Source: an uncultured bacterium (GTDB lineage: Bacteria; Krumholzibacteriota; Krumholzibacteriia; Krumholzibacteriales; Krumholzibacteriaceae). From it: a DNA stretch of 12,913 nt. This document shows positions 9,097 to 12,913 of this stretch, one piece after another. The notes below the pieces were generated by a model. That model made no database searches. It saw nothing but the letters and a program-made list of their open reading frames with translations, and had not been told where the DNA came from. Location: positions 1 to 12,913 of the forward strand of contig CBDUYR010000063.1 of assembly GCA_965371515.1 (NCBI GenBank), read 5' to 3'. The position numbers and the translations under genes were made by a program. How positions within the stretch are numbered: the first letter of the stretch is position 1; each line of letters starts with the position of its first letter.

Positions 9097-10668
9097 ATGC
9101 ACGTCGTGACGAATGAACAGATGAGGCTCCTCGACGAGGAGACGATCAAGAGGTTCGAGCCGGGACTGACCCTGATGGAGAGGGCCGGCCAGGGGATAAC
9201 AGACGCGATCTTCGAGCTCGCCGGCGGCGCGGAGAACCTCTGCGTCTCGATCTTTCTCGGCCGCGGCAACAATGCCGGCGACGGGCTCGTCGTGGCGAGG
9301 CTGCTCGCCGCCGAGGGCGTCAAGTGTACATTGTTCTACCTGCACGAGCCGAAGGACTTCTCCCCCGACGCCTTCAAGAACTACGCGAAGCTGTCGAGAT
9401 TACGCAAGACGGGCGCGATAGAGGAGGTCACCCTGTATCTCCAGGGATGGGAGGACAAGGTCATAAAGGGATTCGCCGAGTGCGACCTGATCGTCGACGC
9501 GCTTCTCGGGACTGGGATCAACAGCCCCATCAGGGATAACTACGCTGAGATCATCGGGCTTATCAACCATTCGAGGCTTCCCGTAATGGCGGTCGACATC
9601 CCCTCAGGCGTCAACGGGACGACAGGAGAGGTGATGGGAACGGCCGTGATGGCCGACATCACCGTGACGATGGCTCTCCCGAAGACCGGTTCGATATTCT
9701 ATCCGGGCAAAGCGTTCACCGGATCGCTAGAAGTGGTCGATATAGGCATCCCGGAAGAGGTGATCGAGGCCGCGGGGATCGACACGTGGGTCCTCGACGA
9801 TATGGCCGCGCTGGCCGATATGCCCCAGCACAGCCCCGAGGCGCACAAGTTCGAGAGGGGAGCCCTGCTCGTCGTCGCCGGGAGCACGAGATATGCGGGT
9901 GCGGCCTGCCTTTCGGCAGTCTCGGCCCTGAGGACCGGCTGCGGGATCGTATATCTCGCCGGCCCCGAGTCTATACGTACCGTCGTCCAGACGGCGTATC
10001 CCGAGATCATATTCGTTTCCCTGGCCGAGACGGATTCCGGCTCGATAGCCGGATCTGCGATCGACATGATCTTCAATGAGATAAAATTCGACGCGGCCGC
10101 GATAGGGCCGGGGCTTACGGTCGAGGAAGAGACAGCGCAGTTCGTGCGCGACTTCGTCTCCCGCTGCGAGAAGCCGCTGCTCATAGATGCCGATGGAATA
10201 AATGCATACGAAGGACGCTACGACGAGCTGAAATCGCTGGCTGAGGGCAGGGGCATCATACTCTCCCCCCACTCGGGGGAGCTGAAGAAACTGACCGGCA
10301 TCGACGTGCCGACAGGGCCGGACGAGAGGGCGGATGCCCTGAGGAAGCTCGTCTCCGGCACGGGGATCACGCTCGTCCACAAAGGGGCTCCGACCATCAT
10401 CGCGCATGCGGGCGGGCGGATCGACGTCAACGTCCACGGCCATCCCGGGCTCGCCACGGCCGGCAGCGGAGATGTCCTGACGGGGGCGATCGCCGGATTG
10501 CTGGCGCAGGGCGCTGCGCCGGACGAAGCGGCGCGAGCCGGAGTCTATATCCATTCGAGGGCTGCCGAGATAGCCGCCGAACTGACCGGCGAGCGTGGTA
10601 TGATAGCGGGCGACTGCTCCGACTCCCTGCCGATGGCTGTCAGGGAGCTCGAGGAGCTCACGCCATAA
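9097..10668 (+). CDS. nnr: Bifunctional NAD(P)H-hydrate epimerase / ADP-dependent NAD(P)H-hydrate dehydratase (YjeF/Nnr)
   Basis: YjeF_N motifs LMERAG, GRGNNAGDG, DALLGTG and VDIPSG. Dehydratase motifs HK..RG..LVVAGS..Y.GAA, AIGPGL, IDADG, SPHSGE, KGAPT and LATAGSGDVLTG. Starts 1 nt after the HAD stop. Confidence 0.96.
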   Translation: MHVVTNEQMRLLDEETIKRFEPGLTLMERAGQGITDAIFELAGGAENLCVSIFLGRGNNAGDGLVVARLLAAEGVKCTLFYLHEPKDFSPDAFKNYAKLSRLRKTGAIEEVTLYLQGWEDKVIKGFAECDLIVDALLGTGINSPIRDNYAEIIGLINHSRLPVMAVDIPSGVNGTTGEVMGTAVMADITVTMALPKTGSIFYPGKAFTGSLEVVDIGIPEEVIEAAGIDTWVLDDMAALADMPQHSPEAHKFERGALLVVAGSTRYAGAACLSAVSALRTGCGIVYLAGPESIRTVVQTAYPEIIFVSLAETDSGSIAGSAIDMIFNEIKFDAAAIGPGLTVEEETAQFVRDFVSRCEKPLLIDADGINAYEGRYDELKSLAEGRGIILSPHSGELKKLTGIDVPTGPDERADALRKLVSGTGITLVHKGAPTIIAHAGGRIDVNVHGHPGLATAGSGDVLTGAIAGLLAQGAAPDEAARAGVYIHSRAAEIAAELTGERGMIAGDCSDSLPMAVRELEELTP

Positions 10669-10684
10669 TGAGAGAGGGGTCCCC

Positions 10685-11524
10685 GTGAAAAGATTCGGCT
10701 GCAAATTTATCCTGGCAACCATCCTGTTTATTGCAGTTTCCGGTTCCGCGACGGCTCAGACATTCATGTTCAAGAACATACCGAAAGACAGGCCGCAGAT
10801 CGGAATACGGTTCCTGAGGCCGAGTTTAAAAAGCGACAGTGACTTGAGCGCTTTTTCCGGCATCTATGATGTTACGCTCAGCCTTGCGGTCAACGAAAAA
10901 TGGAGTATCGATGCTTCATTCCCTTATACAAAGGTCTCCTTCGGTGAGAACGGTGACTCTAACGGTTACATGGGTAACGTTTACGCAGGTCTGCAGCACA
11001 TCAGCAAGAAGGGGAACAGGAGCACCATATTCTCATTCGGTGCGTTTATGCCGACAGGTGAAGATGCTTTGGAGCATATGATCTTCGGCATGCTCACCAA
11101 TTATGAGGACATGTTCAAATACTATCCCGAAGCCTGGACTCTCTATGGCAACTTTGCTTATTTCGACATCAAGAAAGGCGGAGCGAGGCTGGGCCTGGAA
11201 ATCGGCCCGGATCTGTTGATTCCGTCGGGGGATGACAATGATGATCCTGAATTCCTCATGCATTACGGGCTCACCGCCGGGTACCAGGGAGAGAGTTTCG
11301 CAGCCATCACCGAGCTGATCGGCCTGGCGTGGCTGACCGAAGATTTCGATGAATCCAGCGACCGCTTCGCGCATTCGATCAATTTCGGAGTGAGTTATGT
11401 CAGCGAGCACTTCCAGCCCGGTGTGTTCTACAAGATATACTTCAAGGATGACTTCAGGGATGTAGTCGACGGAGTCCTCGGGGTCAACCTGGAATTCACT
11501 CTGCAAGCTGTGCAGTCCCCATAA
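10685..11524 (+). CDS. Secreted hypothetical protein, probable outer-membrane beta-barrel
   Basis: GTG start after GAGAGGGG and a signal peptide ending ATA-Q. Many amphipathic beta-strand-like, aromatic/Gly-rich segments (WSIDASFPY, GNVYAGLQ, IFSFGAFMPTG, HYGLTAGY, SINFGVSY, VLGVNLEF). Confidence 0.7.
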   Translation: MKRFGCKFILATILFIAVSGSATAQTFMFKNIPKDRPQIGIRFLRPSLKSDSDLSAFSGIYDVTLSLAVNEKWSIDASFPYTKVSFGENGDSNGYMGNVYAGLQHISKKGNRSTIFSFGAFMPTGEDALEHMIFGMLTNYEDMFKYYPEAWTLYGNFAYFDIKKGGARLGLEIGPDLLIPSGDDNDDPEFLMHYGLTAGYQGESFAAITELIGLAWLTEDFDESSDRFAHSINFGVSYVSEHFQPGVFYKIYFKDDFRDVVDGVLGVNLEFTLQAVQSP

Positions 11525-11552
11525 GGGACGCGACAAATCCGAGGTGGATGAA

Positions 11553-12314
11553 ATGCCAGGTCAAATAACGGGCTATTACAGTGTGCGCAAAGAGAAGCTC
11601 CTGAAGGATTTTGACAGCACCTCCGAGTTGATGAAAGCCTCGCTTGCCGCGCGCTACGGCAAGGAGTTCGCCGGCACGCTACAGAGAGATGTCCGCCAGG
11701 AATATGAGAAGCTGATCCCGGAGATCCCATACATCAAAGGCCCGCGCGGAAGAATGCTCAACAGCTTCCTTCTCATCACCGCCCAGGAACTCGCGGCCTA
11801 TAAGGCGATGAAGAAACATGGCAAGATGCCTGGAGAGGCATGGGAGCTGTGCCACGAGGCGCTTCGCTTCAGAATGGCGGAGATTCCGCAATGGAAGCGT
11901 TGGCTGATGAGGCGTTTCATGTTTTCTTGCCTTGTGAGAAAGGTTGTGGCGAGACGAGCCCGGAAACAGCAGAAGATTCTTATGGGTGAATTTGAGATCG
12001 AGTATCTCATCGGCGAGAAAGACGAATTCGATTATGGTGTCAATTACCTTCAATGCGGCAATTACAACTTTGTGAAAAACCACGGGGGAGAGGAATTTGC
12101 CCCGTACGTCTGCATGTCAGACATTGCGTTGAGCGAGGCCATGGGGTGGAGCCTCATCCGTACGCAGACGCTTGCCGACGGCTGCGAGCATTGCGATTTC
12201 CGATTCAAAAAGGGGGCAGCAACGCAGATTTCCTCGAAAACGCCTGAAGTGCAGGAATCGATCGAGAGAATACGCAAGAAGGAGACCAGCCAAGGCGCTG
12301 AGGCGGACGGCTGA
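11553..12314 (+). CDS. L-2-amino-thiazoline-4-carboxylic acid hydrolase-family (ATC_hydrolase-like) protein
   Basis: C-terminal signature 'VNYLQC.......G..E..PYVC.SD.......G..L.RTQTLADGCEHCDFRF'. ATG 11553 lies 6 nt after GAGGTG and is preferred to GTG 11544. Confidence 0.82.
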   Translation: MPGQITGYYSVRKEKLLKDFDSTSELMKASLAARYGKEFAGTLQRDVRQEYEKLIPEIPYIKGPRGRMLNSFLLITAQELAAYKAMKKHGKMPGEAWELCHEALRFRMAEIPQWKRWLMRRFMFSCLVRKVVARRARKQQKILMGEFEIEYLIGEKDEFDYGVNYLQCGNYNFVKNHGGEEFAPYVCMSDIALSEAMGWSLIRTQTLADGCEHCDFRFKKGAATQISSKTPEVQESIERIRKKETSQGAEADG

Positions 12315-12343
12315 ACGCCGCCTCTGAGCCTGGCCGTCAGCTC
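12284..12343 (+). mobile_element. attC-like (integron cassette recombination site-like) imperfect hairpin with a non-canonical GAC/GTC core
   Basis: GAGGCGG (12300-12306) pairs with CCGCCTC (12318-12324). GCCA-A-GGC (12289-12296) pairs with GCCTGGC (12328-12334). GAC (12284-12286) pairs with GTC (12336-12338). The right arm has attC spacing: L'-like TCTGAGC, 6-nt spacer CTGGCC, R'-like GTCAGCT. The left arm contains attC-like AAGGC-GCTG. Confidence 0.55.
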
Positions 12344-12363
12344 TTTAAGAGAGTCGTGAGCAA

Positions 12364-12909
12364 TTGGAAACGTTCACCGAACCCAGGGAATTCGTGGAGA
12401 GCACGCGCTACTCACAGGACCGGCGGGATGCTCTCGAAGCGCTGGATCTTCGAACCATCGACGAGCCGCTCGTGGAACTCATCGATGGATTCGCCAGGTT
12501 GCCTAACTGCTTCACCATGCAGAGCTGCTACGGCCACTTCCTGCATGCCCCCGGGCAGGACATTCACAGCCTGGATCCCCTTCCCTCCAGTGATGTCGGA
12601 CCTGTCGACTACAGAATCGCCTACATGGCATTCTGCCTGGAGAACAGTCCGCACGGACGGGCATTGTTTGACGCCCTGTCGCAGATCCCGGAAGGCCTGG
12701 ACCCTGTGCAGTTCGGGTCAGCGGACTGGTTCTGGGAGCGATACCCCAATTCCTACGCGCTGCAGGTAGAACCCACGAGGTTCATGACCAGGGACCGTGT
12801 CGTCGTTGACCACGCAGAAGCGCTGCGCCTCCAGCACAGCAGAGACCTCTTCTTCGGGAGAGTGAAGGAGTTGCTGGAGAGACAACAGAGTGAACACTGT
12901 CGGGGCTGA
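12364..12909 (+). CDS. Hypothetical protein with a TYW3-like N-terminal motif
   Basis: 181 aa with a TTG start. 'IDEPLVELIDGFARLPNCFTMQSCYGH' parallels the TYW3/Taw3 motif D..I..L...IN.....T.SSCSGR. Confidence 0.65.
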   Translation: METFTEPREFVESTRYSQDRRDALEALDLRTIDEPLVELIDGFARLPNCFTMQSCYGHFLHAPGQDIHSLDPLPSSDVGPVDYRIAYMAFCLENSPHGRALFDALSQIPEGLDPVQFGSADWFWERYPNSYALQVEPTRFMTRDRVVVDHAEALRLQHSRDLFFGRVKELLERQQSEHCRG

Positions 12910-12913
12910 CCAG
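12903..12913 (+). other. Possible left end (R''-like box) of a second attC-like site, truncated by the window edge
   Basis: GGGCTGAC contains the stop codon TGA (12907-12909) and is the reverse complement of GTCAGCTC (12336-12343) at 7 of 8 positions. It continues GACCAG, the same hexamer that opens the first hairpin at 12284-12289. Confidence 0.4.

Follow-up and report, generated by a model that had tools for sequence, protein, structure and literature searches.

The window analysed here, a stretch of 12,913 nucleotides, is the entire contig C63, and it ends at position 12,913, 3 nt past the final GAC of the last feature described below. All features lie on the plus strand. Pfam matches identify nnr (YjeF/NAD(P)H-hydrate dehydratase), which together with an unnamed 279-aa gene forms the genomic context (9097–11524), and a gene for an ATC-hydrolase-family protein (11544–12314; PF14196, E 1.3e-14) that is likely to be a former cassette gene. 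These are followed by a decayed short-type attC site (12285–12342) and by a 181-aa cassette gene of an unnamed family with a TTG start (12364–12909), the stop codon of which lies within an R'' box (12904–12910). The genes 3' of nnr vary among all six genus relatives examined, and the 279-aa gene (10685–11524) extends approximately six codons beyond the stop of three genus homologues. Neither an intI nor an attI was recognised upstream of the cassettes in the 12.9 kb window, in keeping with the first-pass annotation, which had noted the lack of an integrase here, and an IntI is encoded on another contig. As seen, the cluster consists of one decayed attC and one R'' box, and its downstream part lies beyond the contig end.

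The first-pass annotation was right to see an integron cassette here, with GTC and GAC as its cognate ends, and these ends and the hairpin are all present in the sequence. The 181-aa gene, a true cassette gene, is bounded at its start by the R' box GTCAGCT (12336–12342), in which GTC replaces GTT and after the G of which the cassette begins, and at its stop by a complementary R'' box, GGCTGAC, which includes the TGA stop and in which GAC replaces AAC. The two boxes form six of seven possible pairs. The window reads GTCAGCTC at 12336 and GGGCTGAC, which contains the TGA, at 12903, and the previously claimed complementarity between the start and end 8-mers at seven of eight positions was borne out, with a chance of 0.0005 for a single position and 0.005 across ten. 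The closest orthologue (G048, 82% amino acid identity) resides in a canonical array, where it starts with GTCAGCC after a different attC and ends with GGCTAAC, followed by the same CAG as in the window, within a complete AAC…GTT site. DNA identity to this array copy begins at the R' box, at window position 12335, and amounts to 90% over 579 nt, so that the boundary is common to both copies. Since this sister copy has a GTC start but an AAC end, the two changes arose separately.

The 181-aa protein has 918 homologues and no Pfam match, with weak leads to the TYW3 fold family (PRK04235, E 0.02; PH1069, E 0.19; and an Atlas cluster at 0.90 with 34% carrying PF02676). Homologues are flanked by full attC sites in varied arrays (L113, L116, L117, L127, L144, L154 and others), and intact relatives mostly read GTTAGCC…GGCTAAC. 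The boxes were surveyed by automatic calling in 109 homologues, comprising the best 80 of 371 metagenome matches and 29 genome loci, which yielded GTT/AAC in 12 copies, GTC/GAC in three, GTT/GAC in three and GTC/AAC in one, the others lacking one box or carrying other triads. A GTC box is called in 3% of shuffled upstream DNA. The GTC/GAC copies (the window, G132 and G128) sit on three separate branches among GTT or AAC relatives, and make up three of the 19 copies with GTT/GTC and AAC/GAC boxes, a share above that suggested by the array background; the association of GTC with GAC within the family has a Fisher p of 0.07. By hand count, a model match starts at the end box in 10/21 AAC-ending copies versus 0/13 of the GAC-ending copies searched; there are 19 GAC-ending copies in all, of which five were left out of the search and one, the window, is cut at the contig end. 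A lone GAC does not cost the model match, as scores of 63 and 84 bits were obtained for other GAC sites. Many copies of the 918-match family are chromosomal and without att sites, yet often retain a TGAC stop context, which suggests repeated domestication of the cassette gene in this family. At L008:1-190, the apparent 5' end of a group II intron, a candidate on the bottom strand, precedes the attC before the orthologous cassette, a placement like that of group IIC-attC introns.

The hairpin upstream of the cassette gene is a decayed, weak and broken attC. Model R2, a covariance model trained on 16 short sites of the AAC type, aligns over its full length to 12285–12342, the top of five matches in the window (14.5 bits, E 0.11). 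The L' box TCTGAGC (12323–12329) was recovered both by this alignment and by motif search, whereas the L'' box GCTGAGGC (12297–12304) has two model pairs broken, and the window reads AAGGCGCTG at 12292. The AAC/GTT triad of the paired R boxes is absent, since the R'' position in register (12285–12291) reads ACCAGCC, which forms only four of seven Watson-Crick pairs with the R' box. The arms resemble those of the canonical site L090:1737-1811. The site was missed by model R1, built from 20 mostly long-type sites, and by a genome-wide R2 search in which 150 of 1612 candidates were scored, so the expectation that standard attC models could miss it held for the long-type model. The hairpin fold has a z of -2.77 on the top strand (2/200 shuffles equally good) and is weak on the bottom strand, which is the recombined one (z -1.65; 12/200 shuffles equally good). 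The site is not wholly intergenic: the hairpin reported between two genes exists, but it overlaps in part the upstream ORF, the stop of which is at 12312–12314. The TTG start of the next gene, at 12364, follows approximately 21 nt beyond the site, close to the 20 nt given earlier.

The motifs listed in the first-pass annotation (GACCAG at 12284 and 12908, attC-like arms and a stop codon in the end box) are all present, but its claim that both left ends carry a GAC core did not hold. The GAC at 12284 is out of register, lying 10 nt from L'', whereas the spacer between R'' and L'' is 4–5 nt in 60/61 and 71/77 aligned sites by a rough regex count, and the model places R'' on ACCAGCC instead. In favour of the earlier claim, this GAC can pair with the GTC, with a probability of 0.7–0.8 on the top strand and 0.3–0.4 on the bottom strand. 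GACCAG occurs six times in the window, and its repetition is therefore weak evidence. No close copy of the hairpin body was found in viral contigs or plasmids, nor in 208 genomes of the phylum, where the best match (E 2.5e-4) was not an attC on inspection. A contig from run X6 matches 12291–12333 with unrelated flanks.

The ATC-hydrolase gene is present in 3/208 phylum genomes (E<=1e-40), and the homologue in G051 (74%) lies approximately 11 kb beyond the last well-formed attC of an integron array. In the G051 homologue a stop stands at the codon matching Q250, and the upstream gene of the window has therefore probably lost this stop, its frame now continuing into the hairpin. In runs X1, X2 and X6, ATC-hydrolase homologues that are approximately 88% identical are several-fold deeper than the host's own DNA.

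The integron of the host is ordinary, with a canonical IntI and an attI-like site carrying GTT. The IntI on contig C31 (G000:C31:28076-29259) is intact and scores above the cut-off (470 versus 265 bits); in a full-length alignment to VchIntIA (E 8e-90) it keeps the residues matching Y26, R135, K160 and W219, by hand count. The K160 lysine is described as the sole base-specific contact at the triad (PMC2811028). What follows the host intI is similar to the attI region of G051, with GTT at the crossover in each. Other tyrosine recombinases of the host are XerC-like or XerD-like, apart from one shorter IntI-related protein, which is encoded on the minus strand at a contig edge (G000:C5:219-1055) and scores 241 bits with TIGR02249, below the cut-off, and 248 bits with NF040815, above it. 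This protein has no match to TIGR02249 positions 176–233, presumably the integron-specific insertion. An array on contig C8 carries three AAC…GTT sites and then a last site reading GAC…GCC; since the cassette of that last site began with GTTAGGT, its GAC is uncompensated. Two isolated host sites read GAC…GCT and AAC…GGT. The former is a decayed attC (G000:C6:64503-64563) that has no recognisable cassette gene and is flanked by housekeeping genes lying on the opposite strand. A second copy of the attI region lies after a tRNA-like gene (tRNA-Val by eye) on the minus strand of G000:C9:58300-61200, without an intI, and two cassette-like genes lie there together with an AAC…GGT site. Searches of the host genome, in which each model scored 150 candidates, turned up no complete GAC…GTC hairpin.

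Triad variation was surveyed in 203 model-detected sites from fetched arrays and loci, a set that includes the training sites, is biased towards the canonical triad and derives from related genomes. R'' triads are AAC in 161 sites, GAC in 18 and AGC in seven, and R' triads are GTT in 178, GCT in six, GAT in five and GTC in four; as the models were trained on AAC/GTT sites, double variants are under-detected. Most triad changes are A:T-to-G:C transitions. From 150 adjacent pairs of sites, 112 cognate pairs were kept (<2.5 kb apart, with at least three of four outer bases complementary), and these are GTT/AAC in 94 cases, GTT/GAC in seven, GCC/GAC in one and GTC/AAC in one, with GTC/GAC in none; one GTC/GAC pair of G053, with two of four outer bases matched, and one partial match in G055 fell outside this set. 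The G053 array has five AAC…GTT sites and, after them, sites reading GAC…GTC, GAC…GCT and GAC…GTT. Altered triads cluster at one array end in G053 and G051, which in G051 is the end distant from intI, and several GAC sites occur mid-array with intact hairpins, so GAC is not limited to array ends. A search of the phylum genomes with the right-arm pattern gave 28 matches in 16/208 genomes, three of them with GTC, for which the left triads are AAC, AGC and AGC. Neither a loose triad-pair scan, with 173 GTC and 24 GTT candidates, nor one with a weight matrix entered the counts, since chance matches swamped both. GAC in R'' is far more common than GTC in R' (18 versus 4), although on the bottom strand GTC leads to a G-T wobble and GAC to an A-C mismatch. 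An advantage of GAC as a TAA-to-TGA stop swap is unsupported, as in-frame stops occur in 5/15 TGAC versus 46/134 TAAC sites, and an altered R' is not significantly more common at GAC sites (3/15 versus 10/134, p 0.13).

Taken with the cassette boundaries, the canonical relatives, the uncoupled changes, the broken upstream site and the canonical host integrase, each of which is directly visible, these data make it very probable that the locus is a stretch of ordinary-type integron cassettes apart from the host integrase, in which the triads AAC and GTT drifted to GAC and GTC via two independent A:T-to-G:C transitions. The paired compensatory change proposed earlier is unsupported: the sister copy is GTC/AAC, there is no GTC/GAC among the 112 cognate pairs, and the excess within the family reaches only p 0.07. 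Points against drift are the GTC/GAC copies on three separate branches of the family, the GTC/GAC pair of G053 that fell outside the 112, the under-detection of double variants, the mid-array GAC sites with intact hairpins and the lack of genome-wide significance of the upstream site.

An unlikely alternative is that GAC/GTC is a compensated working core, in which the pairing lost with the first change was regained under selection and the ordinary IntI still mobilises the cassette. The three independent GTC/GAC copies in the family point in this direction, as does mutagenesis of attC sites: with unmodified IntI1 and a wild-type attI1, engineered GAC/GTC on both attC arms gave 1.0 of the wild-type frequency for aadA7 (Frumerie et al. 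2010, PMC2811028, table 4). The VCR derivative gave 0.044, however, and the GTC change in a VCR site is reported to give no cleavage in vitro. The engineered sites attCaadA7GTC and attCVCRdGTC (PMC2811028) bear the identical change on both arms, but the window change is natural, arose in two steps, stands beside a broken upstream site and is known from sequence alone. No paper on natural GAC/GTC attC sites was found by title or listing, subscription papers and supplements aside. A compensated core is also opposed by the G132 and G128 copies, which have GTC/GAC and no detectable downstream attC, by the count of 0/112 for GTC/GAC cognate pairs, and by the damage to the upstream attC, which is needed for excision. 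The contig end provides a further point in its favour. Contigs of three source-like runs all stop at precisely 12913. Extra depth in the final bin points to a fork, apparently with two continuations, and this could reflect rearrangement. No overlapping contig in the assembly extends past 12913, and no letters past it came from the contigs of the three runs when four runs were compared with the window and the G048 copy. In the fourth run (X6), the contig of a relative that is approximately 90% alike departs from the attC 7 nt past the box.

A mere terminator, or a fold arising by chance where the upstream gene ends, is a highly improbable reading of the hairpin, since no plus-strand terminator was called there, the R' box is where identity to the G048 copy sets in, the X6 contig matches the hairpin between unrelated flanks, and homologues are bordered by full attC sites. 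The cassette origin of the downstream gene is established; the weak model score, not significant genome-wide, and the bottom-strand z of only -1.65 are the points in favour of such a fold. Least probable of all, to the point of being nearly discounted, is the variant system of the first-pass annotation, a separate GTC/GAC cassette system with a divergent tyrosine recombinase, for which the IntI-related protein on C5 and the single G053 hairpin with GAC and GTC could be cited but which is largely refuted by the GTC…AAC sister copy, and against which stand the same cassette in AAC/GTT arrays, the lack of the TIGR02249 176–233 match in the C5 protein, the canonical IntI and GTT attI-like site of the host, the lack of a complete GAC…GTC hairpin among the host candidates scored and the published finding that IntI1 performs worst when both partners carry GTC (0.0056 of wild type for aadA7, and lower; PMC2811028). 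On these IntI1 rates, an ordinary integrase tolerates one GTC partner, so that such a core calls for no new enzyme, and an all-GTC system would work poorly with IntI1. The GTC/GAC ends are most likely to be two separate point mutations in an ageing copy, and a new recombination system marked by them is therefore unlikely.

The drifted ordinary cassette implies the following history. The family entered arrays as a GTTAGCC…GGCTAAC cassette, the form seen in relatives. In the window lineage GTC was probably the earlier change and GAC the later, because the G048 sister copy has GTC yet still ends in AAC. With its left triad and two L-box pairs gone, the upstream attC is likely no longer used for excision of the cassette, which would have lost its mobility. 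Its arrival in the variable region after nnr may have occurred via rearrangement or secondary-site insertion, origins that have been suggested for the elements known as CALIN and SALIN (Cury et al. 2016, PMC4889954; bioRxiv 10.1101/2022.09.11.507474), which the visible part of the locus resembles in having one or a few attC sites and cassettes, no intI upstream and an IntI elsewhere in the genome. Unlike in those elements, the one complete site of the window is too decayed for the genome-wide model, and the contig is cut, so that the cluster is seen in part. If the cassette's own attC beyond the contig end is intact, it would probably remain a substrate for the normal host IntI when the partner is GTT, by analogy with IntI1 mutagenesis. 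The host integron itself recalls the chromosomal integrons of Treponema, in which the layout is described as reversed, with intI transcribed toward attI (PMC3607928): intI, attI and the array are co-oriented in G051 (G051:C1:2070534-2072864), and the C31 end of the host has the same layout. Treponema belongs to a different phylum, and the likeness concerns the host integron rather than the window.

A GAC/GTC pair by itself is no sign of a new system. Since approximately one-fifth of the attC sites in these environmental arrays do not have AAC on the left (42/203), strict AAC/GTT filters lose real sites. There is a small chance that a compensated GAC/GTC core evolved repeatedly in the cassette family and that the ordinary integrase still mobilises the window copy, in which case the relaxed triad, until now demonstrated with engineered sites, would have a natural example. 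A copy that is still mobile would also allow the reasons for triad conservation to be tested in nature.
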